Shown here in pieces: positions 27,201 to 45,423 of a stretch of 64,000 bases of DNA. This stretch comes from Candidatus Pacearchaeota archaeon (GTDB lineage: Archaea; Nanobdellota; Nanobdellia; Pacearchaeales; GW2011-AR1): NCBI GenBank assembly GCA_018303995.1, contig JAGVXB010000002.1, positions 5,916-69,915 on the forward strand, read 5' to 3'. The notes under the pieces were generated by a model. The model made no database searches. It was not told the origin of the DNA and worked only from the letters and a program-made list of their open reading frames with translations. Position numbers and translations under genes: made by a program. The first letter of the stretch is position 1. Every line of letters begins with the position of its first letter.

Positions 27201-27462
27201 TAATTCAAATATTTCTTCTGGTGGAAATTATGTTCCACCAACAATATATCCATCAGATTCTGATGACTTCTCAGATTTGCCTTCACAAGACATAGTGGAT
27301 TCTTCTGCTATTAGTTTGAGAAATGTGATTTTCTGGACTGTTATTGCAATACTTTCTGTAATGATTGCTATTCTCATTATTTTGATTATAAGAGAAATAA
27401 AGGTTCGTGTTGCTGTGAAAAACACAGATTATGTCAAAGTGTTTGAAAACCACACCCTTTAG
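24211..27462 (+). CDS. giant surface protein: two beta-helix modules, two Ig-like repeats, G/S linker, C-terminal TM anchor
   Basis: Paralogue of 22190-24130 with the beta-helix module duplicated. The likely start is M at 24229 (MRKRKNL). The last ~10 codons (from ATG 27431) run into hairpin repeat copy B. Confidence 0.7.
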   Translation: MWNGVCMRKRKNLVIPRVPLSYSVPLLIVCIAVFFVLFSWYLGGIPNIMLQAVPVNVINVTSCGTLSQNNAYYVLNSSLSFTTSNCITIQGDNVTLDGEFKHLITSSAPYSYTASAVLSLGKNVTIQRLNITVPVSRGIVIYGSNSVVNSNVIKDAYVAAVIGAAATPSGVIFSNNVINRAYIGISIWDATKVEILDNTISNTNNSVDIGLFGGQSILLKNLNIINQSPLTNSLTITDAVANGNVPGPPNFIDIVDSSFTSYQIANAFTTFTSTGKGEINFTQPISGGVMTQGVSGRNLNDDVKIEYNYAYVNSTRAGLNVPARITFEGLPTNLVNPVMLRNGLSCPANICTNLTSLNAGTVVFNVTGWTDYSINLGGAPVVIPVNAINVSSCGVLSRNNTYYVLNASFTASISPCISIIGNNVTLDGTSRYSISPATGLSSVGIDIVGSNVSVARVNLRSFRVGIASGNRDSYIYGNSIVGSGIVSSGFTSVGIDLYETLRSRVAQNLISNVQVGINLNFSNKSLIERNVLNKLNPADLLDTGILLYLGFNNSIDSNTITRANYSITLSNSNHNNISNNILLNSSISGVYSILSGFNSFSNVSILNPRRDGIVLVSGIPIYNSFKNVNVINGNSSHYDLDVNSPYFASTSSAYVDIIDSSFKSYRINNSFVNLINTSNGRINFTQPFMNVNGLDLGSDIHVERNLANVESALRPRLNVPARITFEGLPTNLVNPVMLRNGLSCPANICTNLTSLNAGTVVFNVTGWTNYSISSVINPNNNSSNNNTYSNISINEPDSGDLYTVLDFPVVFDVNLSMNGSVKFSLNGGVANITMNTLNRRTFTYSQSLLLIGNYTFTAYANFSNGVNESLSVDFRVVDIVPTMSINEPSPDESYALSAFPVTFNISLNLNGSVNFSLNNGVTNTTMNTTNNRLFTYSQGLLPVGNYVLTAYSNFLNGAKRNATVNFVVVNNPNNPGGSSGGSGGGGGRRSTTGIARNNSNISSGGNYVPPTIYPSDSDDFSDLPSQDIVDSSAISLRNVIFWTVIAILSVMIAILIILIIREIKVRVAVKNTDYVKVFENHTL
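25168..25319 (+). repeat. 152-bp intragenic cassette, copy 1
   Basis: AATGTGCCTGCTAGAATTACTTT...GTTACTGGATGGAC. By eye it differs from 26362-26513 at 3 positions. Confidence 0.9.
26362..26513 (+). repeat. 152-bp intragenic cassette, copy 2
   Basis: Encodes NVPARITFEGLPTNLVNPVMLRNGLSCPANICTNLTSLNAGTVVFNVTGWT, as does copy 1. A diverged third copy lies at about 23060-23170 in the neighbouring gene. Confidence 0.9.
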
Positions 27463-27543
27463 GGCATGAACACTTTGAGCATCCAAAAAACCAAACAAAC
27501 CATGCACTTTAGTGCGTGGTGAAATCAAAGTTTTTTTGATATA
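27431..27543 (+). repeat. dispersed hairpin repeat, copy B
   Basis: ATGTCAAAGTGTTTGAAAA...GAACACTTTGAGCATCCAAAAAA...(inner hairpin CCATGCACT/AGTGCGTGG)...ATCAAAGTTTTTTTGATA. It lies between two convergent genes. Confidence 0.8.
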
Positions 27544-31162: not shown

Positions 31163-32194
31163 ATGGGGAGATTAGTCATGGGTTTACAAATAGGCGATTT
31201 GGTTTCTCGGAAAGAAGTTACTTTTTCCGAGTTGAAAGGGAAGACTATTGCTATTGATGCTTTTAATGTGATATATCAGTTTTTGTCTTCTGTTAGACAA
31301 CCAGATGGAACTCCGCTAATGGATTCTTCTGGCCAAGTTACTTCGCATTTGTCTGGGTTGTTTTATAGGAATATTGCCCTTCTTGCTGAAGGGATTAGTT
31401 TAATTTATGTTTTTGATGGAGAGTATCATGTTCTTAAGGGAAAGACTCATGAATTACGCCAGGCTGCTAAGGATGTTGCTGTTGAGAAATATGAAGAAGC
31501 TGTTGATGAGGGGGATGTTGATGGGATGGGGAAGTATGCTCGTGGTTTTTCTAAAGTTGATGACAAGATGATTTCTGAAAGTAAGGAGTTGCTTGAGGCG
31601 ATGGGTATTGCTGTAGTTCAGGCACCTGGTGAGGGAGAGATGCAGGCTGCTGAACTTGTTAAAAGTGGACAGGCTTATGCTGTCGGCTCTCAAGATTATG
31701 ATGCTCTTGTCGTTGGAGGAACTCGTTTAATTCAAAATTTGACTTTATCTCGCAAACGCAAGACTGTTTCCGGATTTATTTACATAGCGCCGGAAATGAT
31801 TGAATTTGAAGGGGTTATTAATCAACTTGGGATTAATTGGGATCAGCTTATTTGTTTAGCTATTTTAGTTGGGACGGACTTTAATCCTGGGGGCGTTAAG
31901 GGTATTGGGCCTAAGAAGGCGCTTGCTCTTGTTAAGCAGTTTGTTTATCCTGTGAAGATATTTGAAAGTGTAGTTGAAAGACATGGAGATTTAGGTTTTA
32001 ATTGGATGGAGATATTTGAGATTTTCAAGAAACCGAATGTTTCAAAGCATAAAGTTACTTTTCCTAAAGTTAATGAAGAGAAGATTAAAGAGATTCTTGT
32101 TACTCGACATGAGTTTTCTGCTGAACGTGTGGAGAATCAGCTTGTTAAGTTGCGAGAGATTAAGTCTAGAAGCGCGCAGAAGAGTCTGTTTTAG
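31163..32194 (+). CDS. fen: flap endonuclease 1
   Basis: MGLQIGDLV...IAIDAFNVIYQFLS...DGTPL...TSHLSGLFYR...VFDG..., then the H3TH region GTDFNPGGVKGIGPKKA. The likely start is ATG 31178. Confidence 0.92.
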   Translation: MGRLVMGLQIGDLVSRKEVTFSELKGKTIAIDAFNVIYQFLSSVRQPDGTPLMDSSGQVTSHLSGLFYRNIALLAEGISLIYVFDGEYHVLKGKTHELRQAAKDVAVEKYEEAVDEGDVDGMGKYARGFSKVDDKMISESKELLEAMGIAVVQAPGEGEMQAAELVKSGQAYAVGSQDYDALVVGGTRLIQNLTLSRKRKTVSGFIYIAPEMIEFEGVINQLGINWDQLICLAILVGTDFNPGGVKGIGPKKALALVKQFVYPVKIFESVVERHGDLGFNWMEIFEIFKKPNVSKHKVTFPKVNEEKIKEILVTRHEFSAERVENQLVKLREIKSRSAQKSLF

Positions 32195-32979
32195 ATATTC
32201 TCTATGCCTTCAAGGTCTCTTCTAGCTCTTTCTTTGAGTTCTTCTTCTTCTTGTTTTTCTTGTTCTTCTTTTAATTTTTGGGATTCTATTTTAATTATTT
32301 CTTTCTTATTTTTTCTGGATTCTTCTTTTCCTTCTTTGGCATTTCTTTCTAATATTTTCTTCTTTGTTATTTGTTTGATTTGACTTGATAAAAGTAGTAT
32401 TGAAAGCAATAATATTAGTATTGTGAAAAAGTAAACATATTTTCCTATTGTTTCTTCTATATTTGATGCTGTTTCAATAAGATAAGTGGCCATTGACTTT
32501 TCTATGCGTACTGATGAGATAAAGATTATCCAAGAGGCAAGAATAATTCCTTTAATATATTTCTTTTTTTTACCCTCGATGTATATATTGATTATATGAG
32601 TTAAATCATAGAGCAATTTTATCAATATTATGTAAATTATTAAGGTTAATGTAAAAAACCAAGATATTGTGAATCCTATGCCTAAAATAATGTTGAATAC
32701 AGGGTCAAGGTATTTGAATAGACTTTCTATTTTTTTTAAGATTTTTCCGAATGTAGTTTGTTCTAGTATTTCTGTTTTCTTTTCTTCAAGGAATTCTTCT
32801 CTTATTTTATCATTTCCTATTATATTTATTATATCTTCTGGACTTTCTAATACTTCTTCATTTGTTTCATTACTTGGAATGTTTGAATTAGCTTGGGAAT
32901 ATGCTCCATTGACAAATAAACTTGTGATAAAGATTGCTACTATGATCATCAAAACCAGCTTTTTTTGCATGGATTGCAA
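32191..32979 (-). CDS. membrane protein with signal peptide and lysine/glutamate-rich C-terminal tail
   Basis: N-terminal hydrophobic leader, several TM segments, and the tail KEEQEKQEEEELKERARRD. Confidence 0.5.
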   Translation of the reverse strand: MQSMQKKLVLMIIVAIFITSLFVNGAYSQANSNIPSNETNEEVLESPEDIINIIGNDKIREEFLEEKKTEILEQTTFGKILKKIESLFKYLDPVFNIILGIGFTISWFFTLTLIIYIILIKLLYDLTHIINIYIEGKKKKYIKGIILASWIIFISSVRIEKSMATYLIETASNIEETIGKYVYFFTILILLLSILLLSSQIKQITKKKILERNAKEGKEESRKNKKEIIKIESQKLKEEQEKQEEEELKERARRDLEGIENI

Positions 32980-33096
32980 AATACTCTATTTTTTTTAAGT
33001 CTTTACATATGCGTTTATTTAGTTAACTACTATATAGTAGATACTAAATCGAAAGGTTTAAATAGGGGTTTGTATATCATTTTTTAGGATAATAAC

Positions 33097-33744
33097 ATGA
33101 CAAGAGAATATACTGCTGGAGGAAGAACCGTTATTGGTGATATTGCTAGCGGAGCGAAGAGGGCTTATGAAGGGATGATTAGACCTGCTGTTGGTTGTCT
33201 TGCTAACGGGGTGAGAGGAGTTTATAATAAAGCAGTCAGGCCTGCTGTTAGTTATCTTGGTGCTGGAGGTGTTGCGGGAGGTCTTGTTGGAATTGCTATT
33301 ACTGGAGGACCTATTGGGGCAGTGCTTGGTACAGTTGTTGGAAAGAAATGGAGAGAAGGTCTTAAAATAGCTGGGGAGTTAAAAGAGCGAAATGATCAAG
33401 TTATAGCTATGGCTGAGGCTTATGAGGAAGCTACTAGTGCTACTCCTACAGGTTATGGTGTTAGAGACTCTTTTATATTTCCTAGAGCAGAAGCTCGAAA
33501 AGCTGCACGTGCTTATGGGAGTTTGTGCGATAAAGTCGAGGATGAATTAGGTATTGAGAAGCCAAATTTTAAAACTGTTAAAAAATATGTTGGTTTACAG
33601 AATGAAGCAAATGCTTTGTTTGGTGCTGACGCTTCAGTTAGAGAATACCTTAAAGCAAAGGAAATGTTTAGAGCAGCTTATAATGCAGACCCTGCAGATA
33701 TAGGACAACTTAGAGACTTTTTACAAAGACTTAGAGGACCATGA
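33097..33744 (+). CDS. hypothetical protein with a glycine-rich hydrophobic segment
   Basis: ORF with repeated RPAV.. units and GAGGVAGGLVGIAITGGPIGAVLGTVVG. Confidence 0.45.
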   Translation: MTREYTAGGRTVIGDIASGAKRAYEGMIRPAVGCLANGVRGVYNKAVRPAVSYLGAGGVAGGLVGIAITGGPIGAVLGTVVGKKWREGLKIAGELKERNDQVIAMAEAYEEATSATPTGYGVRDSFIFPRAEARKAARAYGSLCDKVEDELGIEKPNFKTVKKYVGLQNEANALFGADASVREYLKAKEMFRAAYNADPADIGQLRDFLQRLRGP

Positions 33745-33746
33745 TT

Positions 33747-34376
33747 TTAGGTTTTGTTCATATAAGCTTTTAGTCGCCTTACATTTTTTATTTCTTTTAT
33801 ATATTTATTTTCTTGTCTTTTTATTGAATACCAATTTAGTATGGCTGGAAGGTAACCTATTTCTACAGCAAGAATTATTAATTTATATAAATAATTGTCA
33901 ATTATTGCGCTTAGAGTTATTATTTGGATTATATTTCCGAGAATTGGTATTTGTGTAAGAGTTGCATATCCTATTGCCATAACAAAGACTTTAACTGGTG
34001 TTCCTGCTATTGTGTTTATCCATCTTATTTTCATATATTCGATTTCAATTCCGCTGTCAAAAATTCCTTTTATTTTTTTTTCACCTTCTTCTTTGCCTTT
34101 TATGTAGCTATAATATCCCTTTATTAAAAATGAGGTTAGCCACAATATGATTCCTGCAAATAAGGCAAGAATGAAATGACTGAAAAAATTGTCGCTAAAA
34201 TTGCCTAAATCTTCTAGTCCGAATATTTTTTTGCTGAATTCGAGTGATTTTTCTAGAAAACTTGTCGGGGATGTTGTAGTATTTAATGATGCAAATGTGC
34301 CAATTATTATAAGAACCAATAGACTTCCCGTTATTATGTTTATGAAACTCATTTTATGAACTGCGTAAGGCTTCAA
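33747..34376 (-). CDS. multi-pass membrane protein, tandem family member 1
   Basis: Shares QIPILGNIIQIITLS plus a basic Y/K-rich tail with the next two genes. The probable start is the internal ATG (MSFINII) near 34352. Confidence 0.55.
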   Translation of the reverse strand: MKPYAVHKMSFINIITGSLLVLIIIGTFASLNTTTSPTSFLEKSLEFSKKIFGLEDLGNFSDNFFSHFILALFAGIILWLTSFLIKGYYSYIKGKEEGEKKIKGIFDSGIEIEYMKIRWINTIAGTPVKVFVMAIGYATLTQIPILGNIIQIITLSAIIDNYLYKLIILAVEIGYLPAILNWYSIKRQENKYIKEIKNVRRLKAYMNKT

Positions 34377-35034
34377 TTGCCGCTTTATTTGCCTTTATTT
34401 TGAGTAGTTCGCCTCTATATTTTTTTCTTAATTTATATGTGGAGTATGCTTCTATTGCAGCAGGGCCCATTCCTAGAACAAATGCTACTATAAGTGGCTT
34501 TACAATAAAGTATGCAACGGTATCTTTGAAAATCATTAGAGGTTCAAAAGTTATTATTTGAATGGCTACTTTTATGAAAGGTATTTGGTTTAAGATAAAG
34601 TAGAACATTCCAATGGGAATTGCTTTCCAAAACTGGTTTCCGGCGAATTTAAGCCAGCTATTATTTGCTATGATTTTTAGGTCAGTTTCATTAATTCCTG
34701 GATTCATTATTTTTTCAACTTTAGTTGCTATAAAATAAATTAGGCAAATGTAAAATCCCGCTATAAATCCTATAAAGAGGTCTTTGAAAGAGTCTAAAAA
34801 TCCTCTTTCAAAACCTAAAATCTGAAGTATTTTGGTTTTTGAAAAATCTGTGAATTTTTGTATGGAGTTTACGTTTTTCCAGTCCCAGGTTGTAGAGCTA
34901 GATGTTTCGATGGATGTGAGTTGTTTCCATGTATCTGGAAGAAAGAAGAATATGATTCCTACTATAACTACTACAATTATTGCTATGGCTATTAAAATCT
35001 TTATTGTTAAACTTATTCCTCTTTTGTTCATCAT
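34354..35034 (-). CDS. multi-pass membrane protein, tandem family member 2
   Basis: NQIPFIKVAIQIITFE motif, then a TM segment and a basic tail (YKLRKKYRGELLKIK). Confidence 0.55.
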   Translation of the reverse strand: MMNKRGISLTIKILIAIAIIVVVIVGIIFFFLPDTWKQLTSIETSSSTTWDWKNVNSIQKFTDFSKTKILQILGFERGFLDSFKDLFIGFIAGFYICLIYFIATKVEKIMNPGINETDLKIIANNSWLKFAGNQFWKAIPIGMFYFILNQIPFIKVAIQIITFEPLMIFKDTVAYFIVKPLIVAFVLGMGPAAIEAYSTYKLRKKYRGELLKIKANKAAIEALRSS

Positions 35035-35066
35035 GTTATATTTATTTGTTTTTGGTGTTTAAATAT

Positions 35067-36104
35067 TTAGATTTCCGCCTTTTTCTTCAGATATTCTTCT
35101 TTTAACGCTTTCTTGTATTTAATGTATTCTGTATTGTATTCATTAAATTTTTCTATATAGGGGTCTATGAATAGGATTGCCGCTGAGACAATGATTGCCC
35201 TTATCCAGAATGGTGTGCCTATGATTTCAAGAGTAATTATTTTTAAAAGGAGGTTTAGAATAGGAACTCCGCTTCCAACGAAATAAACTATTGAAAATAG
35301 TGCGGTTCTGTTAAATATATTTTTGAATTCTTTCTGTTTTTTAATATATTGCATCATTCTTTTATTTACGTTTTCAATTTCTGAAGTTTCTAAATATTGA
35401 GAAGAATTGTTTTGTTTGAGTTGAGGTCTATGGACAATGGTGAAAAATTTGATTATAAGGTAAATTATAATAATAATTCCAATGACTAATGCATCAAAGA
35501 AGAGAAGCCTATAAAGAAAATTGTCTATGTTCCAGAAACTTCCTTCGAACAAATATGGTCCGTCTATTCTTGGAAACCATCCAGTTATCTTATTCATTCC
35601 TTCTTTTATTGATGCAAAGTTTTTGTCAATGAAATTATCTAATACTCCTATTGTTTTTGATGCTCCTGTCCATAACCCGATAGTTATTTTAGAAAACAGG
35701 GTTTGTTCACCTGTTGCTGTTAACGTTGGTGTTGGAGGAGTTATGATTATTGGTTGACTGTTTGTTGAAAGAATTAAAATAAGTGCAAATATAGCAAATA
35801 CGGCATATGTGATGAAGTTAGACTTATTTGAATCATAAATACTTTTTATTTTATTTATATTTGATTTATTAACATCTTTTATTTTTTCTCTTATGTTTGA
35901 AAGAAAAATTCTTATTTTTGCAGGTGCGAACATTGGTTTTATTATTTCAAAAATTGACATATAAAACCATAAAGCTATTGCAATTAATCCTAGTAAACTT
36001 CCAATCCATTTATTTGTGAATGATGATGCTAGGTATGTTAGCGCTGTTATGCCTATTAAGGCTAATGCAGTCTTATTACCTGCCATCTTATCACCTAATT
36101 TCAT
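35067..36104 (-). CDS. multi-pass membrane protein, tandem family member 3
   Basis: GSGVPILNLLLKIITLE motif, then a TM segment and a basic tail (YIKYKKALKEEYLKKK). Confidence 0.55.
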   Translation of the reverse strand: MKLGDKMAGNKTALALIGITALTYLASSFTNKWIGSLLGLIAIALWFYMSIFEIIKPMFAPAKIRIFLSNIREKIKDVNKSNINKIKSIYDSNKSNFITYAVFAIFALILILSTNSQPIIITPPTPTLTATGEQTLFSKITIGLWTGASKTIGVLDNFIDKNFASIKEGMNKITGWFPRIDGPYLFEGSFWNIDNFLYRLLFFDALVIGIIIIIYLIIKFFTIVHRPQLKQNNSSQYLETSEIENVNKRMMQYIKKQKEFKNIFNRTALFSIVYFVGSGVPILNLLLKIITLEIIGTPFWIRAIIVSAAILFIDPYIEKFNEYNTEYIKYKKALKEEYLKKKAEI

Positions 36105-36242
36105 ACTTCATCGAGGGAATTTGTATTTATATAATTGTGCTTGATTGCTTCAAATGGGTCTTATACCCCTTAGCTTGCTACAATAGTTCCCATTTGAAGG
36201 CTTAAAGAATACCCTACGGCTTGCTGTGGTTGGGATTCTTTA

Positions 36243-36737
36243 TTAATTTTTTTTGTATCTTACCCATTTATGTATTGAATTATCGAAAAATATTAGCAAT
36301 AAAGTTAGTCCTGCTAATATCCAATTCATTAGCTTTCCTTGTTCTGATAAATTGTAATATTGGTCATAGAATACGAATGCAAACGAGCCTGCGAATAAGA
36401 TTATTAAAAATTTTCTGATTAATGATGTGGTGTTTTTTCTATGTATGAGGTATGTTATTACGAGCATTATTGCAATGTATATAAGAAATATTCCTAGGAA
36501 TTTTGATGAAATTCCCATGTTTTGTATTGCGGTTTCGCTTATGCTTCTGGCAGCAACTATCGCAATTACTAAACTAATAATTCCTTTTATTGAATTGCTC
36601 CATTGTAGCATTTTCATTTGTCTTAAAATGGCATAAATTGCCACAAAAATTATGAGAAGAAAGATGATTCTTATTTGGAGTGTTTCGTCAAGATTGATTA
36701 ATTCGTCAAAGATATTCATTAGACTGTGAGTTATCAT
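36243..36737 (-). CDS. multi-pass membrane protein (164 aa)
   Basis: Four to five hydrophobic helices. No recognised motif. Confidence 0.5.
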   Translation of the reverse strand: MITHSLMNIFDELINLDETLQIRIIFLLIIFVAIYAILRQMKMLQWSNSIKGIISLVIAIVAARSISETAIQNMGISSKFLGIFLIYIAIMLVITYLIHRKNTTSLIRKFLIILFAGSFAFVFYDQYYNLSEQGKLMNWILAGLTLLLIFFDNSIHKWVRYKKN

Positions 36738-36825
36738 ATGTTTAAATACTGTTTTGCTTAACCTATTTTAATTATATAGTAGTAAAAATAGTAACATTTA
36801 AATAGTTTAATTTAATCTTTAAATT

Positions 36826-37179
36826 ATGAAAAAAGATGTATCTGATACCGTTATGGATAGGTTAAACATAGATAGGGGTGTCAGAGATTTAATAAGGCAG
36901 ATGTGGGAGCATGATTGTGAGACGAAGGCTTCGTGTGAAGGGCATGGGGTTAAACCTGCTTATGTTCTTCTTTCACAGAGTGGTGACGGCTGGTTTGAAA
37001 AGAACGCTCACTTATATGGGCTTAGAAGGGCTTTAAATGGTTCTTGTTGCGAGTCTCGAGTTGTTGGTAATGTTTGTGGAGTATGCGGTGCAGGAATAAG
37101 AGGAAATTCTGTTTATAGGGGAAGGATAGTTCAAAATCCGGTTGCTTTTGAAAGTGATGTTACTGAAGTTAGTTTTTAA
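36826..37179 (+). CDS. small cysteine-rich protein
   Basis: CETKASCEGH...CCESRVVGNVCGVCG cysteine pattern in 117 aa. Confidence 0.45.
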   Translation: MKKDVSDTVMDRLNIDRGVRDLIRQMWEHDCETKASCEGHGVKPAYVLLSQSGDGWFEKNAHLYGLRRALNGSCCESRVVGNVCGVCGAGIRGNSVYRGRIVQNPVAFESDVTEVSF

Positions 37180-37287
37180 TATTCTTTAATATGTTGAACT
37201 TTTATGATTCTTAGCGTATGACCTAAAACTCCGATGCTTTTTGAGATATTAATAAGACTTAAATACTAGCTATTTTTTATTTAGATT

Positions 37288-38271
37288 ATGATAAATAAAA
37301 GGTTAGGTGTATTGCTTTTTGTTTTTGGGCTCATTGTTTTAGGGAGTATTTTCGTTAGTGCACAGAATGATTTTTGGGATAATGTAAATCCAATGGGAGA
37401 TGTTTTTCAGAATACAGATCTTTTTAATTTGCAGACTGGTGCTTTGAAAGTTGTTTTTCTTGCTATATTGATTGTTCTTATATTTGCAGGACTTATGGAA
37501 GCTGACTTTCCTAAATCTACTTCTTTAAAGTTTATTATTTCTGTTTTGTTGGGATATTTGGCTACTATTTTAATTACTGGTGATGAGATTACTGCTGCGA
37601 TGCTTTCATATAAAGCGTTTGGAGTTGCTCTTATTTTATTTATTCCTATAATGGGGCTTGGATTTGTGACTTATGTTTCTGTTCAAAAAGGAAAGGGAGT
37701 ATTTATTGTGGCGCAGAGACTTTTGTGGCTTGCTTATGCAATGTTTTTGATAATATATGTTATAGGACTTGTTTTGTTGAGGTGGGATGTAGGGTTTGGA
37801 GGATTTGGAGATAATGGTAAGATTAATGAAAGTTTGGGAACTTATACTACTAGTTTAGAGGCATTGAGAAATGCGCAGTCTGAGTTGGCTAAACTTCCAG
37901 TTGAGAAAGATAGTAATGGAAATCCTATTGGAGCTTATAAAACTAAAAAAGATTTAGTTGATGGTGCTCAACGTAATTTAGATGCTTCGGAAGAGAAGCT
38001 TCCCGCGTTGATTAACCAATATAGATTTATTTTTGGGCCTAAATATCTGGAATATGGTTCTGATGAAAAGTTTAAAGTAAGTAATACTACTCTTCTTATA
38101 TTGTCTGTGATGGCTATATTTGTTCTTGTGGTTTTTGTTATTAACAATAATAATGTTGTTGCGTATTTAGAGAAAGACATAAGTCAGAGAGATATTGATG
38201 AAGAGAGAAATTTGATTAAGAAGTCTCATGCTAGAGATGTTGCTAATGCTGAAGTTGTTGGTAAGAGATAG
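37288..38271 (+). CDS. membrane protein with signal peptide
   Basis: Signal-like N-terminus (VLLFVFGLIVLGSIFVSA), multiple TM segments and a soluble loop. Confidence 0.5.
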   Translation: MINKRLGVLLFVFGLIVLGSIFVSAQNDFWDNVNPMGDVFQNTDLFNLQTGALKVVFLAILIVLIFAGLMEADFPKSTSLKFIISVLLGYLATILITGDEITAAMLSYKAFGVALILFIPIMGLGFVTYVSVQKGKGVFIVAQRLLWLAYAMFLIIYVIGLVLLRWDVGFGGFGDNGKINESLGTYTTSLEALRNAQSELAKLPVEKDSNGNPIGAYKTKKDLVDGAQRNLDASEEKLPALINQYRFIFGPKYLEYGSDEKFKVSNTTLLILSVMAIFVLVVFVINNNNVVAYLEKDISQRDIDEERNLIKKSHARDVANAEVVGKR

Positions 38272-38371: not shown

Positions 38372-38776
38372 TTGACTAAATTACAAAGTAGTAAAAATAG
38401 AAAAATATATAAACTAGATTTAAAACTAAAACCTATGGGTTCGGAAGAGTATAAGTTGCCACAATTACCTTCTTTAAAAGATCTTGAGGCAAGAGCAGAC
38501 AAACAACTAAGTGAGGGTTCTGAGCTAAAAGTGCTAAGGTTAACTGAAACTATTTGTCCAGTTTTAGAAAGATATATTGCCCAGACTTCTTGCCTACCTC
38601 GCGATAAGAGGCCAAGCGCGAGAATTCAATTTATGGGAGAAAAAGTTGCTTGTGAAAAGCACAAAATAGAAATTAAAAAAAGTGTAGGAAGATATAGCTT
38701 CTGCACGGTAACGAATGAAGGATGTCCTTATAGCACATTACCAAGTTATAAAGCATTAACTAGGGAGAAATTATGA
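38372..38776 (+). CDS. LPQLPSL-motif protein with CP(V/I)LERY Cys-rich C-domain
   Basis: The track start is TTG. ATG 38435 (MGSEEYKLPQLPSLKDLEARADKQ), preceded by AAAATATATAAA, is the more likely start. The C-domain is paralogous to 40145-40570. Confidence 0.55.
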   Translation: MTKLQSSKNRKIYKLDLKLKPMGSEEYKLPQLPSLKDLEARADKQLSEGSELKVLRLTETICPVLERYIAQTSCLPRDKRPSARIQFMGEKVACEKHKIEIKKSVGRYSFCTVTNEGCPYSTLPSYKALTREKL

Positions 38777-39189
38777 ACCGAAAAGAATTTGATATACCAA
38801 GATTGCCTTCATTAGATGAATTAATTAAGAGAGCAGAGAAAGAACAAAAAGAAGATTCTTGTGAAAAAAAAGAGGCTTTAGAGAAGCAAGTAGAAATGCA
38901 GATATTGAGAAACAGACTCGAGTCATTAAAAAGAGCCGAAATTGAAAGAAAAAATTATAAAAGAAATGAAGTAATTAAAGAAATTGGAGGAAGAGCAGTA
39001 GGACTAGGATGTATTGTTGCTGGAGCATATTTGATTTATTCGGGAATGGATAATCTTTTATTTCATCAAAGTTATATGAAAAGCTTAGTTGAAGAAGATA
39101 GGCTAAATTACGGATTTTTGAATATGTTTAAGGTTATAGGTGGGGGAATATTAATTTTTGGGGGAAAAGAGAGATTATCTAATAGCTAA
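38773..39189 (+). CDS. IPRLPSLDELIKRAEKEQ-motif protein with two C-terminal TM helices
   Basis: N-terminal motif, then a coiled-coil text, then GLGCIVAGAYLIYSG and VIGGGILIFGG. Overlaps its upstream neighbour by 4 nt. Confidence 0.55.
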   Translation: MNRKEFDIPRLPSLDELIKRAEKEQKEDSCEKKEALEKQVEMQILRNRLESLKRAEIERKNYKRNEVIKEIGGRAVGLGCIVAGAYLIYSGMDNLLFHQSYMKSLVEEDRLNYGFLNMFKVIGGGILIFGGKERLSNS

Positions 39190-39194
39190 ACAAA

Positions 39195-40148
39195 ATGACA
39201 TATGAAATAACAAGAATGGATGCAAAAACAAGAGACTTAGTAGCGAATAGTTCTAACGCTTTTGAAGCTTTGTCTCATGTTGATGTTGGTTTAGTAGATT
39301 TTTATCATGCAAATAGAGATAAACTTACTGCAAGCGAGATAATGCCTGCAATAGTTAGATTTGGAGAATTAAAATCTGATGAACGAGTCAATTTAGTTAG
39401 AACAATGGGCGCAATAAGACAAGCCGAAATAAGTGCAGATGTATCTAAGTATCAAGTTGATGGTGCTGTAAAAATAACTGAATTAACTGAAGATGGTCAA
39501 AGTTATAGAGTAAGAGTTACTGAGGAAAATTCAACTGAAAGAACTAGAATCTCAGAAAATGCTCTGACATTAAGGCATAGTAGAGAAATGGAAACTCAGG
39601 AGAAGATAAATTCAATGCAATGTCATGTAATGACGAGAGCTCTGGAGGCAAGATTAGAAGGTGAAAAATATGTTTCAGACAATAAATTAAGAGAAGTCTA
39701 TGCTGAAACAGAAATGAGAAGGCATGTAGAAGAGGTAAGAGCAGCTACAGAAAGAGGAATCTCTAGAGATAGGCTGGAAGAAAAAGTTAGAACTGCCGAA
39801 TTAGCAATGGAACAAACAATAAGAACTTATGAAATACAAAGACAACAAAATAAAGACTCAAAAAAGGCTGAAATGGTTCTGGGGTATGTTCTAGCAGAAT
39901 GTAGAATTATAATAGAATATATTAAAACAAAAGGACTTGAAAAGATAGAAAGAGAAAAGACCAAACAAGAATTTGTAAAAGGGGGACTTGGAGTTATAGG
40001 AAGGGCTATAGATAAAGGTAAAGATGATGTTTATTTGGAACTTCGAGATGGAGACAAAAGACTTTCATTAGATTATTCCTCAAATAGAAACAGGTCACTG
40101 CCTCAACTACCAAACAGTCAACAAGATAAGGGAGATAAAGATCAATGA
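39195..40148 (+). CDS. charged coiled-coil protein ending in SLPQLPNSQQ
   Basis: 317 aa, rich in E/R/K, with a C-terminal LPQLP-like motif. Confidence 0.5.
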   Translation: MTYEITRMDAKTRDLVANSSNAFEALSHVDVGLVDFYHANRDKLTASEIMPAIVRFGELKSDERVNLVRTMGAIRQAEISADVSKYQVDGAVKITELTEDGQSYRVRVTEENSTERTRISENALTLRHSREMETQEKINSMQCHVMTRALEARLEGEKYVSDNKLREVYAETEMRRHVEEVRAATERGISRDRLEEKVRTAELAMEQTIRTYEIQRQQNKDSKKAEMVLGYVLAECRIIIEYIKTKGLEKIEREKTKQEFVKGGLGVIGRAIDKGKDDVYLELRDGDKRLSLDYSSNRNRSLPQLPNSQQDKGDKDQ

Positions 40149-40570
40149 CAAAAAAATATGAAGATATTCCAAGATTGCCTTCATTAGACGAGTTAATTAA
40201 AAGGGCAGAAAAGGAACAAGAAAAAAATAGAGGTGTGTCTCGAAGAGCTGAAAAGTTGCCTTTGCCTGAGTTACTAAGGCAATTGTCTGAATATGTTTCT
40301 GCAGAAGATTTGAAGAGATTGATGGAAAGACCCGAACCTTCTTATGTGCCTGAATCGGAACCTATTGAGGAAAGAACAACTACTTGTCCAATATTAGAGA
40401 GATACAACTCAAAAATGAGTATATATAGCAGTGCGGAAATAAAAATAATAGGAAATAGGAGTTCTGGCTCTTGTCAAATTGTTTGTGAGCATTATAATCG
40501 CGGTTGTGGTATCATTCCTGCTGCTTGGAATAATAAACCTTGCCCATTTGAATCCAATAAACCCTTTTAA
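40145..40570 (+). CDS. IPRLPSLDELIKRAEKEQ-motif protein with CPILERY Cys-rich C-domain
   Basis: The N-terminus is near-identical to that of 38773-39189. The C-domain is paralogous to 38372-38776. Overlaps its upstream neighbour by 4 nt. Confidence 0.55.
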   Translation: MTKKYEDIPRLPSLDELIKRAEKEQEKNRGVSRRAEKLPLPELLRQLSEYVSAEDLKRLMERPEPSYVPESEPIEERTTTCPILERYNSKMSIYSSAEIKIIGNRSSGSCQIVCEHYNRGCGIIPAAWNNKPCPFESNKPF

Positions 40571-40717
40571 CAAATTTTTATATTTGAAATATTTTTATCT
40601 TGCTCTTAGGCATTTATAGTTTTTTATTTTGATATTTATTGGCTATTAAAATTGATAACTTCCTCCTCATACTAGGATTGATTTGTTAAAACTGTTACAA
40701 TTTTTATATCTCTTTAT

Positions 40718-40984
40718 TTATTTTAATTCTATAATGTCTTCGATTTCTTTTTTCATTTCAATGTTTAAAGAAACTTCTAAACCATAATGAGTTGGTTTTG
40801 AGGATATAAATTTATTTTTTAATAAATCTTCGATAGCCTTTCTTACTTCTTTTCTGCTTTTTAGATGATCTGGTAGACCTTTTTGTAAATTATGTATACT
40901 TGTATGTTTATGTGTCCAAATCCTATGTCTTACGAGTTTTCTTAAAATAAACTTTTCTATCTCTTTTTTTATAATTTCATCCAC
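40718..40984 (-). CDS. hypothetical protein (88 aa)
   Basis: ORF only. Confidence 0.35.
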   Translation of the reverse strand: MDEIIKKEIEKFILRKLVRHRIWTHKHTSIHNLQKGLPDHLKSRKEVRKAIEDLLKNKFISSKPTHYGLEVSLNIEMKKEIEDIIELK

Positions 40985-41102: not shown

Positions 41103-41447
41103 ATGGAATCTGATATTGAACCTGTAAGCATTTTTGTAGAATATTTTGGTAGCTCTCCTTATATTAAGGTGCTTGACTATTTGATTTCTGGATTTGGTTT
41201 TGACTATAGCATGACTGAAATAGCCAGGGGTGCAGGTGTTGGATGGAGCGCATTTACTAATGTTTGGAGTAGGCTTTTAGAAAAAAAGATTATTGTTCAG
41301 ACTAGGACTGTTGGGAATGCAAAACTTTTTACATTGAATAAAGAAGATGAATTTGTAAAGAAAATTGTTAAATTTGATTGGGAGATAACTAAGCTAGAAA
41401 TGGATAAAGTACATGAAGAAATTGTTGTCTTATCGAAAAAACATTGA
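41103..41447 (+). CDS. winged-helix DNA-binding protein (tentative)
   Basis: YSMTEIARGAGVGWSAFTNVWSRLLEKKIIVQTRTVGNAKLFTLN has an HTH plus wing pattern. Confidence 0.45.
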   Translation: MESDIEPVSIFVEYFGSSPYIKVLDYLISGFGFDYSMTEIARGAGVGWSAFTNVWSRLLEKKIIVQTRTVGNAKLFTLNKEDEFVKKIVKFDWEITKLEMDKVHEEIVVLSKKH

Positions 41448-43070: not shown

Positions 43071-43433
43071 TTATTTAACAAACTCTACATTATCTAAATC
43101 TTTGAATTCTTTATCTCCTGTGAGGAACTTGATTCCTAATCTTTTAGCCATAATATATCCTATGCAATCAGGCACAGAGACGTTTCTGTCTTTCCATTCA
43201 AGCCTAAATTTTATGGCCTCTTCAATCCATTCAGGGTTGACCGAAACAATGTGCTTAGAGTATCTTTTAATATAATTATCTGCTTCAGGATTTTTATCTC
43301 TAAACCAAGCATAACATAATTCTGAAAAAGTAAAATTGTTTATTATTATTTCACTATCTAGATAAGGCTCATAATTTAAATTTCCTTTAGTAATTTCAAT
43401 AATTGCATATGCATCAAAATAATATTTAGTCAT
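43071..43433 (-). CDS. vapC: PIN-domain toxin
   Basis: N-terminal YFDAYAIIE and C-terminal TGDKEF acidic residues. Overlaps the upstream antitoxin gene by 8 nt. Confidence 0.75.
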   Translation of the reverse strand: MTKYYFDAYAIIEITKGNLNYEPYLDSEIIINNFTFSELCYAWFRDKNPEADNYIKRYSKHIVSVNPEWIEEAIKFRLEWKDRNVSVPDCIGYIMAKRLGIKFLTGDKEFKDLDNVEFVK

Positions 43434-43684: not shown

Positions 43685-45423
43685 CTAAATGTTAGATTGG
43701 CCTTTTACTGCTGACGGACTTTCGCCTCCGTGCCACGTTAGTCTTGGACGCATTCTCATAGGATAAATGCGCTCTGAATTATCGTCTAGGATAATTGCAG
43801 AGCCTTTGCTTGATGGGAGCTTGTCCATTGAGCTTTTTATGCTTTCTAATAGATAAGTTTGCATTATTTGATTTAGGGCTTCTATATCTGGTTTGGAAGT
43901 AACTCGGTGCGAGATTATAATATCTGATTGAGTCATTACGTCATTGTGTATTTGTCCTGGTTGTTGAGTTGCTAAGACTAGAGAAATTCCTGGTTGACGT
44001 CCTTCTCTTAAAATTTGGACTAGTGCATCTGTTGCTGGGGTTTTTTCGTTTTTTTTCAAAAATTCGTGGGCTTCGTCAATAAAGAGCCAGACTAAAGGAG
44101 TTTCTCTTGTTGGATTGTAAGACATGTAATCTATTCCATGTTGAATTGATTGAATTTCTTCTTGTTTTCTTGCGTTTATTCTCTGAGTGAATATCTTTCT
44201 GCTAACTAGGCCTATGACTAGGCCTCTAACGTTAAATGAACCAATTGAGCTGTAAACTGATAAGTCTATAATTGTAGTTTTGCCTGCATTTATTAAATCC
44301 GTTATTTCTATTCCTTCTGTTGTTGTTGCAAAAATTCCCCAGCTTTCTGCTGCTTGGAATAAAGAGTTAGCTATATTTTTTGTTTCTTGACTTATATTAT
44401 GTGTTTTATTTATTTGATTTATTATATCTTGTATTGTAAAGCTGTCTTTTTCTTTTTTTAATTCGCTTATTGTGTTTGTTATTAGAACTCCTTCTTGGGA
44501 CGTCATTAATACGTTAAAGGTAATTATCCAGTCTTCGGATTCTAATTCTGAAGCTTTTAATGCAAAGGCTTCGTCTACTGGAATTCCTTTATCGCGATAC
44601 TCTTGCATTTTTCCTATAGGGGCGAATACTTTAATTGGGGAGCTTTTTGGTTCTAATTTCCATTCATCTAATAGGGATTTTTCTTTTTCGTTTTTGAATT
44701 TCATTGTCCAGAAGATACCCATTGTATCAAATATTATAGGGGCTATGTTTCTTGATGTTTCTGGCGGTAAGTTAGATATTTCTTCTGTTATGACGCCAAG
44801 CGTGTACGACTTTCCAGAATTATGCGAAATTATTCCATTAGCTATAAAAGAATGATTTTTAGGAACTGATAAGTCATATACTTCTTTAATATTTTCTATT
44901 TCTTTAATCTCTTTAATAAATCTCCAACTTTTAGATTCTTTCCAGTTCTCCATAATAAAGATAATTGTTTATTGCCTGTTGCGATTAATAATGGATGTTC
45001 TTTTGTCAGAATTAGTTCTTTATTATTTTCTGATATTATTTTAATTAATTCTTCATCCTTTATATTATATCTTATTAATTCTGCTCTTTCCCATTCAAAT
45101 GTTTGGTTCTCTAAATTAAATGATAATACTTTGTCAAGCAATGGATTGAAGTCTTTTATTCTCTTGTAACCTTTGTCTGTAAATACTTGCGTGTTTCCTT
45201 CTAGGCATCCTCTTTTTCCTGCTACTAGAATTACATGCGACCTTGCGACATCAAGGAAAATATTATTTGACATTGAGGTGTAATTCCCCATTGTGACGTA
45301 GCCTTTACCTATATGTATTAAGCCTGACTGCCCGAATTTCTTTTTGTCTGAAGCATCTCTGCCAAGAATTATATCATATGCCATATAATTAAACGATTTT
45401 ATGTCTATAAATATGTTCTCCAA
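43685..45423 (-). pseudogene. HerA/FtsK-like (DUF87-type) P-loop ATPase carrying a mini-intein, with the reading frame broken inside the intein
   Basis: The Walker A motif is split as VAGKRG | intein | SGKSYT. Walker B is LVWLFIDEAHEF and ATQQPGQI follows. The two track ORFs (44896-45423 and 43685-44953) are in different frames. A 1-nt shift near 44905-44925 would join them. Confidence 0.75.
44819..45207 (-). mobile_element. mini-intein (about 130 aa) in the ATPase P-loop
   Basis: Block A CLEGNTQVFT, block B LILTKEHPLL, blocks F/G VYDLSVPKNHSFIANGIISHN followed by the +1 Ser. No homing-endonuclease-sized insert is present. Confidence 0.75.

Follow-up and report, generated by a model that had tools for sequence, protein, structure and literature searches.

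The subject of this report is a four-gene cluster on the forward strand (38435-40570) of a 64,000-nucleotide stretch of DNA from a Candidatus Pacearchaeota archaeon, referred to below as the window. The products of genes 1, 2 and 4 begin with a short proline-containing motif (LPxLPSLxEL in outline), and gene 3 encodes a larger helical protein. We propose, at a probability of roughly 40%, that the motif is an operon-intrinsic docking peptide through which swappable subunits and a membrane anchor are held on the helical product of gene 3, and that the DNA encoding the motif is the junction at which such subunits are exchanged. This reading was deduced from the confinement of the motif to the cluster, the linkage and translational coupling of the motif genes with gene 3, the diversity of the C-terminal modules and the predicted cytoplasmic location of the gene 2 motif.

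As proposed, the cluster would be an accessory module that encodes a self-contained protein complex in Pacearchaeota/Woesearchaeota-type DPANN archaea. Its constant subunit would be the helical gene 3 protein of ~310 amino acids (aa), co-translated with one to five variable small proteins. The motif, LP-x-LP-(S/T/P)-L-x-(E/D)-(L/V)-x-x-R-A-E, would form a short amphipathic helix with a proline-rich cap ahead of it and would serve as a handle for a cluster-encoded site, most likely on the gene 3 protein. Docking would tether interchangeable C-terminal modules to one cytoplasmic scaffold, these being a short or long four-cysteine (4-Cys) domain that is probably metal-binding, a Cys-free X domain and a hydrophobic-hairpin membrane anchor. 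The DNA that encodes the motif would also act as the junction for exchange of C-terminal cassettes between strains, giving a strain-variable repertoire. We infer gene 3 binding, metal binding, membrane anchoring and the biological role alike, as we do everything beyond the sequence patterns themselves.

A shared and confined N-terminal motif

Genes 2 and 4 share the segment DIPRLPSLDELIKRAEKEQ exactly (BLASTP 21/28 identical, E 3e-11), in agreement with the initial annotation, which had described a near-identical N-terminal segment in the two. The related N terminus that it had ascribed to gene 1 was likewise found: the gene 1 sequence, KLPQLPSLKDLEARADKQ, fits the common pattern. In genes 2 and 4 the segment lies within direct repeats that are 85% identical at the DNA level; the similarity of the two 5' ends had thus been claimed correctly, but the second interval given for it was ~7 nucleotides (nt) out of register. 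Over the 19 motif codons, genes 2 and 4 show seven synonymous differences and no non-synonymous difference. Since the codons differ synonymously only, the peptide is under purifying selection and not a fresh duplicate.

The 85% identity of the 5' ends at the DNA level would suit a recent local duplication or gene conversion that left common N termini with no function of their own. This explanation was rejected as extremely improbable, since all seven differing codons are synonymous and since the motif persists, written in different codons, across 25 proteins of ~12 loci, where the gene 3 homologues are as little as 25% identical. Both the motif and the Cys domain described below are kept, under purifying selection, in about a dozen other loci.

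The consensus of these 25 proteins, anchored on the central LP, is (D/E/K)-L-P-(K/R/Q)-L-P-(S/P/T)-L-x-(E/D)-(L/V)-x-x-R-A-(E/D). The central proline and the leucine after it are present in 25/25 and the leucine before it in 24/25. In every protein the motif begins no later than residue 9 (5-8 after Met); it is followed by an amphipathic helix (hydrophobic moments 1.2-2.1) and is, besides the four cysteines, the most conserved feature of these proteins. It is carried by four kinds of C-terminal module (Table 1), which strengthens the earlier claim that proteins different in other respects have an N-terminal linear motif in common.

For the pattern [LI]P[KRQ]LP[STP]L.[ED][LV], 0.0011 occurrences are expected when the genome is translated in six frames; three were seen, only in genes 1, 2 and 4. 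Three genomes carrying the cluster were covered: that of the window (G000; 0.89 Mb in 38 contigs, completeness ~83%), G061 and G062. A 26-column hidden Markov model (HMM) of the motif matched only cluster genes in them (three, five and three, respectively; E 1e-7 to 6e-13), and gave no match in 400 other genomes of the class. A cell-wide or general sorting signal was rejected because the motif occurs nowhere else in the three cluster-carrying genomes. The initial annotation had suggested docking, sorting or processing; the general sorting role is thereby dropped, and docking to a cluster-encoded partner is favored by the confinement of the motif together with the predicted cytoplasmic position of the gene 2 copy. 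Overall, what that annotation had observed was confirmed and extended, and its interpretation was supported in part. Because the motif is confined to cluster genes, its reader should be encoded in the cluster, where the gene 3 product is the only constant protein without the motif.

Linkage of the motif genes to gene 3

A word-indexed search with gene 4 returned a single relative, P0002. A profile made from genes 1 and 4 and P0002 then matched, in an exhaustive search of 1.84 billion cluster representatives, 10 proteins (E<=1e-3). All 10 have 113-151 aa and all four aligned cysteines, and all except P0011 (SQLPPL) have a clear N-terminal motif. One to five motif genes next to a gene 3 homologue were located in ~12 distinct loci (Table 1), which belong to genomes and metagenomes of the Pacearchaeota/Woesearchaeota type of DPANN; L017-L021 come from groundwater samples of Rifle and Hainich type. 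In every locus with enough flank the gene 3 homologue adjoins at least one motif gene, and the overlaps are usually 1-4 nt. The loci in this count are the window, L009/17/18, L019, L012/20/21, L013, L024-26, L027, L011 (where the 5'-truncated neighbor shows the Cys domain only) and L049.

Since L024-26, L027 and L049 each pair a single motif protein with a gene 3 homologue, the minimal conserved unit is taken to be one motif protein plus the helical gene 3 protein. The same loci bear on a somewhat unlikely alternative, in which the motif helix is a handle for self-association, the small and membrane-hairpin proteins oligomerize, and gene 3 acts separately, for example as a chaperone or regulator. 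The amphipathic helix (moments 1.2-2.1), predicted confidently by AlphaFold2 (AF2), the occurrence of up to five paralogues per locus and the restriction of the motif to the cluster would all agree with self-association, but loci with one motif protein and a gene 3 homologue argue against it and for docking to gene 3.

The gene 3 homologues are 92, 90, 48, 48, 36, 33 and 25% identical to the window protein, with one outlier at 22%. The homologue at 25% is the 279-aa protein of L049, aligned by hhalign at a probability of 99.9%. Family alignments revealed a conserved N-terminal domain (FEAL.H...AYA...MP...RF.ELQS.EK), and a long helical hairpin is predicted as well. The initial annotation had noted that gene 3 ends in SLPQLPNSQQ. 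The SLPQLPNS tail is present, but it is absent, in the family alignments, from the homologues at <=48% identity; as a conserved feature related to the motif it was not supported, and its interpretation as a fourth motif copy was rejected.

The gene 3 profile matched 1/401 genomes of the class, the window genome, and searches with single proteins found nothing in the 60 nearest relatives, including 16 same-genus genomes. The families appear to be very rare and restricted to Pacearchaeota/Woesearchaeota-type DPANN archaea.

Table 1. Features of the cluster in window coordinates, C-terminal module types and gene content of related loci
Feature	Position	Strand	Description	Basis or remark
Promoter element	38385..38413	+	Conserved AAAGTAGTAAAAATAGAAAAATATATAAA, ~29 nt	Aligned upstream regions
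TATA-like box	38403-38413	+	Within AAAGTAGTAAAAATAGAAAAATATATAAA	~27 nt 5' of ATG 38435
Gene 1	38435..38776	+	Short-form motif + 4-Cys protein, 113 aa	ORF, pairwise and family alignments
Gene 1 motif	38453-38506	+	Residues 7-24	
GGGAG	38763-38767	+	Shine-Dalgarno-like, 5' of gene 2	
Gene 2	38773..39189	+	Motif + charged helical region + two Gly-rich hydrophobic segments	ORF, hydropathy
Motif-coding direct repeat, gene 2 copy	38791..38856	+		Repeat family D1
Gene 2 motif	38791-38847	+	Residues 7-25	
Gene 2 hydrophobic segments	about 38983-39051 and 39118-39168	+	Short, Gly-rich	
Gene 3	39195..40148	+	Soluble, mostly helical protein, 317 aa	Family alignments, AF2 secondary structure
Gene 3 ERGISRDRLEE	39750-39782	+	At predicted hairpin turn	ERG and D not invariant across family
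Gene 3 SLPQLPNS tail	40095-40118	+		Kept only in relatives 90-92% identical in gene 3
GGGAG	40130-40134	+	5' of gene 4	
Gene 4	40145..40570	+	Long-form motif + 4-Cys protein, 141 aa	ORF, alignments
Motif-coding direct repeat, gene 4 copy	40163..40228	+		Repeat family D1
Gene 4 motif	40163-40219	+	Residues 7-25	
Gene 4 second module	about 40253-40354	+	Motif-like KLPLPELLRQL helix	
Gene 4 Cys domain	about 40376-40555	+		
T-rich tract	40571..40640	+	3' of gene 4, likely archaeal transcription stop	Sequence reading
Short 4-Cys module			Gene 1 type	
Long 4-Cys module			Inserted KLPLxELLxQL helix	Gene 4 type, including divergent P0010 type
Hydrophobic-hairpin module			Charged coil + two Gly-rich hydrophobic segments	Gene 2 type
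Cys-free X domain				L019, L048, truncated gene upstream of P0002 in L001
L009/L017/L018			Cys-a, Cys-b, gene 3, hydrophobic-hairpin protein, long-form Cys	
L019			X-domain protein, hydrophobic-hairpin protein, gene 3, long-form Cys	Order as in window
L012/L020/L021			Five Cys genes + gene 3 + membrane protein	Between rpS6e and aIF5B
L013			Three Cys genes + gene 3	Same place as L012
L024-26, L027			One Cys gene + gene 3	
L049			Gene 3 homologue, then one long-form Cys gene	

Gene layout and promoter

The listing of open reading frames (ORFs) and the raw sequence agree on four forward-strand ORFs (38372/38435-38776, 38773-39189, 39195-40148 and 40145-40570). These are co-directional and translationally coupled, as first described: genes 1 and 2 overlap by an ATGA at 38773, as do genes 3 and 4 at 40145, and 5 nt (39190-39194) separate genes 2 and 3.

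The first gene had been placed from 38372, a TTG. An ORF from that position is present, but the start there is probably spurious and ATG 38435 is most likely the true one. This was deduced from the conserved element with a TATA-like box that lies between the two codons, and from the motif, which then begins at residue 7 as in every relative. The 'SSKNRKIYK' in the translation of the longer ORF would then be the promoter DNA element read as protein. The same AAAGTAGTAAAAATAGAAAAATATATAAA block precedes the first gene in the window, L009, L012 (two copies) and L013. The spacing of the TATA-like box from ATG 38435 implies a leaderless or near-leaderless mRNA.

The gene 2 product and the predicted location of its motif

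The two transmembrane (TM) helices first assigned to gene 2 correspond to two hydrophobic segments that do exist, but they are short and rich in glycine, and just one of them passes the 19-residue hydropathy threshold of 1.4. The first segment is preceded by a K/R-rich stretch, and the loop is poor in positive charges. By the positive-inside rule, the K/R-rich stretch places the gene 2 motif in the cytoplasm, as a prediction. The orthologue in L019 (L019_TM) is 84% identical in the domain after residue 26; that in L009 (L009_TM) is 40% identical over its full length and 28% in the domain.

This predicted topology bears on the suggestion, which we consider improbable, that the motif is a non-classical export or sorting signal and the 4-Cys domains are disulfide-bonded extracellular proteins. 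Consistent with export are the four conserved cysteines, which are widely spaced, lack CxxC pairs and are separated by loops of variable length, and the frequent position of the cluster beside paralogous signal-peptide/multi-TM proteins (window, L009, L019, L027 and L049). On the other side, the carriers have no hydrophobic signal sequence, the motif also stands on the predicted cytoplasmic N terminus of gene 2, and the membrane paralogues persist in the same-genus genome G016, which has no cluster. Furthermore, no other motif carrier was found in the three genomes and the minimal loci encode no membrane component, so that a general or a dedicated translocon is hard to place.

The four-cysteine domain

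A C-terminal Cys domain common to genes 1 and 4 had been claimed, and the pairwise comparison (E 3e-4) and a 14-member family alignment bear this out. The four invariant cysteines, at C41, C73, C90 and C97 in gene 1, follow the pattern CP[IV]L ... V.CE[KH] ... GC ... CP[YF], with spacings of about 30, 16 and 6-25 residues and inter-Cys loops of variable length. No CxxC or CxxH knuckles were found in the family alignment, all four cysteines being isolated. The domain is probably metal-binding, although four cysteines with no CxxC knuckles leave a metal site and disulfides unseparated by sequence.

The middle of gene 4 (VSRRAEKLPLPELLRQLSEYVSAEDLKRLMERPEPSYVPE, 40235-40362) is identical to that of P0002 (L001 199-326) at 40/42 residues and ~90% of nucleotides, the codon changes being eight synonymous and two non-synonymous. 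The flanks of this segment, the N-terminal motif and the Cys domain, have diverged strongly. The segment would thus be either mosaic or unusually constrained.

Several observations weigh against docking of metal-binding modules on gene 3. The L049 homologue does not conserve the segment where the gene 3 hairpin is predicted to turn, and the most distant homologue (P0017, L022) has no motif gene in the 127 nt upstream or directly downstream. The cysteine pattern, being devoid of CxxC knuckles, is equally typical of disulfide-stabilized secreted domains. Both AF2 models are weak. The gene 3 model (alignment of 3 sequences) has a predicted local distance difference test score (pLDDT) of just 47, and was therefore used for secondary structure alone; the Cys-family model (alignment of 14 sequences) has an overall pLDDT of 65, and its sole confident part is the N-terminal helix after the prolines (pLDDT 91, residues 11-20).

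Cassette exchange and genomic setting

As an accessory cassette, the cluster lies in a strain-variable region. Same-genus G016 keeps the flanking winged-helix genes, a TYW2 methyltransferase gene and the signal-peptide/multi-TM membrane paralogues, and at the position of the cluster has instead a small membrane gene and an AAA_14/DUF4143 ATPase gene. A closely related contig, deposited as Candidatus Pacearchaeota archaeon, is 88-92% identical in nucleotides across the flanks and gene 3. Compared with L009 (6657-9519) and L017, strains 88-92% identical, the cluster (38372-40570) stands as a whole in inverted orientation at the same place, between the membrane-protein gene and an 88-aa winged-helix gene. 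Flanking inverted repeats that might explain this inversion were sought and just weak AT-rich matches were obtained, none convincing.

The junctions of the shared blocks coincide with the motif-coding repeats. A block 89.9% identical between the window (38791-40223) and L019 (2473-3899) has its left end at the gene 2 motif repeat; the block common to the window and L009 is 39194-40222; and on the right all blocks shared with L009, L017, L018 and L019 stop at the gene 4 motif repeat. Beyond the repeats, the C-terminal modules are unrelated between close strains. Cassette identities are incongruent with gene 3 identities, and only clearly homologous pairs were used here because the semi-global identity table inflates unrelated ones. 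The closest relative of gene 1 is P0006/L012_d (65% identical from end to end, 66% in the domain that follows residue 26), and gene 3 of that locus is 48% identical, whereas the gene at the same position in L009 is 32% identical in this domain and its gene 3 is 92% identical.

The order FEN1, membrane paralogues, cluster and two winged-helix genes is the same in L049 as in the window. As this macro-order is kept in so distant a locus, it suggests that the cluster has long resided in this region and has often been lost or exchanged there, rather than having inserted at random.

In view of its rapid turnover in a hotspot, the cluster could have an inter-organism or conflict-related role. One rival explanation, which is considered unlikely, is a polymorphic conflict module, effector- or toxin-like, directed against hosts, competitors or mobile elements, in which a constant N-terminal targeting region would be joined to fast-diversifying C-terminal domains swapped as cassettes; it concerns role and is partly compatible with docking. 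The patchy distribution (1/401 genomes of the class, none of the 16 same-genus genomes), the strain-variable hotspot (an AAA_14/DUF4143 ATPase gene in G016, an IS66 transposase in one variant and a PIN gene nearby), and the mosaic cassettes and tandem divergent paralogues would fit such a module. However, PADLOC, Pfam and NCBIfam yielded no toxin, immunity or defense family, the small genes have no one-to-one immunity-like partner, and most of the variable modules are versions of one 4-Cys fold and not unrelated toxins.

Returning to docking, a wider version of it can be put forward tentatively, as something possible. The cluster would then encode a 'dock-and-swap' complex of DPANN archaea, in which a helical hub, by means of the LPxLPSLxEL docking helix, recruits strain-specific metal-binding subunits and a membrane anchor. 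New subunits would be acquired by recombination at motif-coding DNA, and the complex would be modular, fast-evolving and possibly for use between symbiont and host or in conflict.

Further observations were made on the surroundings. FEN1/XPG is followed by paralogous signal-peptide multi-TM proteins with charged C-terminal tails and then by the cluster in both window 31163-38271 and L049 968-5031. In the membrane-protein stretch, a 117-aa Cys-rich ORF (36826-37179, +) matches phrog_6638 (unknown function) at E 1e-7; this is the only PHROG match near the cluster, and the ORF is unrelated to the 4-Cys family. On the other side, two divergently transcribed genes for winged-helix-like proteins of 88 aa (40718-40984, -) and 114 aa (41103-41447, +) adjoin the cluster. 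Both accompany the cluster in L009/L017 and also in L049, where the homologues have 90 and 105 aa, and the 114-aa family has several paralogues per genome in the genus. These two proteins could be local regulators.

In one metagenomic variant an IS66-family transposase gene (PF03050, E 1.5e-31; L018 217-1575) stands in place of the first Cys gene. Some 2.5 kb from the cluster, at 43071-43433 (-), lies a gene with a PIN domain (PF01850, E 4e-9), which fits a variable, toxin-antitoxin-rich region. A dispersed hairpin repeat of the window (27429-27489) also has copies next to the clusters of other strains (L009 4006-4072, L019 154-186; 80-94% identity), which is consistent with a small mobile repeat. 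The gene for a HerA/DUF87 ATPase (window 43685-45423, -; L009 1366-3786; L046 5217-6530) varies in intein content by strain: the L009 copy has 806 aa and matches to Intein_splicing and LAGLIDADG_3, and one continuous stretch of G016 with no insert matches both fragments in the window.

Searches against known families and significance

The initial annotation did not recognize either the motif or the Cys domain, and no known family was matched by any of the routes taken. Pfam, NCBIfam, PHROG and PADLOC gave sub-threshold noise only for the four proteins, their relatives and the family alignments. Sequence profile searches of the PDB gave nothing significant for the cluster families, and Foldseek searches with both AF2 models gave no match at E<=0.001 in the PDB or BFVD. 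Literature searches found no description, and the families appear to be undescribed. A virus or provirus origin was rejected, as relatives were absent from IMG/VR (gene 3 and Cys family) and from INPHARED phages and no PHROG match was significant; plasmids were not searched.

The genomes of DPANN archaea are tiny, and a large fraction of their genes is unassigned. The cluster offers a testable case in which three or four uncharacterized families, tied together by one N-terminal peptide under strong selection, occur with a helical partner that is constant, a conserved promoter and cassette exchange at motif-coding DNA. If the peptide is a docking handle, it would be a new recognition motif in a simple system of peptide and hub that can be reconstituted in vitro with no need for cultivation, and it would give a criterion by which more client proteins could be recognized in metagenomes. 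If it is instead an export or processing tag, it would reveal an unrecognized trafficking route in these archaea. The great rarity of the family may limit how much it matters in general. As a module it is coherent, lends itself to direct tests and belongs to no recognized kind; with its narrow reach and putative function, it is judged to be of moderate interest.

Comparison with known systems

The small C4 zinc proteins of archaea (zinc ribbons and treble clefs) are similar in being small cytoplasmic proteins with exactly four invariant cysteines. They differ from the 4-Cys family in having CxxC/CxxH knuckles and another Cys spacing, and no profile or fold match connects the two.

The first five residues of the motif resemble the MIT-interacting motif 2 (MIM2) of ESCRT-III/CdvB, which binds the MIT domain of Vps4/CdvC and has the core phi-P-x-phi-P with charged x (PMC8970359). 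The variants IPRLP, LPKLP and LPRLP, found in 19/25 motif proteins, fit this core, and the motif could on that ground be an ESCRT-III-type MIM2 peptide read by an MIT-domain AAA ATPase (Vps4/CdvC). However, the motif is N-terminal and not C-terminal, has two prolines instead of four and is missing the downstream P-phi-P half with its second proline pair. The carriers are not ESCRT-III (Snf7) proteins and have no Snf7 match. For the MIT domain (PF04212) there was no match at E<=0.1 in G000 (~83% complete) or G062 and a sub-threshold one in G061 (17.8 bits against a cut-off of 30 bits), and for Snf7 (PF03357) there was none above the cut-off in the three genomes. The MIM2/MIT reading was rejected on these grounds as scarcely credible.

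Polymorphic toxins (LXG, Rhs and CDI) and prochlorosin-type loci for ribosomally synthesized and post-translationally modified peptides (RiPPs) are alike in combining a conserved N-terminal segment with diversified C-terminal parts, tandem paralogues, recombination junctions at conserved 5' coding sequence, a patchy distribution and a variable genome island. Unlike these systems, the cluster has no recognizable toxin, immunity, secretion, modification or peptidase genes, and its products are folded proteins of 110-180 aa, mostly of one 4-Cys family. The small genes follow one another in L012 and L013 with no interleaved immunity-like partners. In these two loci the neighbors are rpS6e and aIF5B, and no genes for a RiPP modifying enzyme, leader peptidase or transporter (radical SAM, LanM or C39) adjoin the cluster.

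Cargo peptides of encapsulins and bacterial microcompartments (BMCs), and more loosely the dockerin-cohesin pair, offer a further comparison. Pfam and PHROG searches detected no HK97-fold encapsulin, BMC-domain or cohesin-like protein here, the partner is predicted to be helical and has no fold match, the motif sequence is unrelated, and docking is a proposal. In common with the cargo peptides, however, the cluster has a short terminal peptide with an amphipathic helix on otherwise different proteins, whose genes lie beside that of one constant structural partner and to which the peptide is confined.

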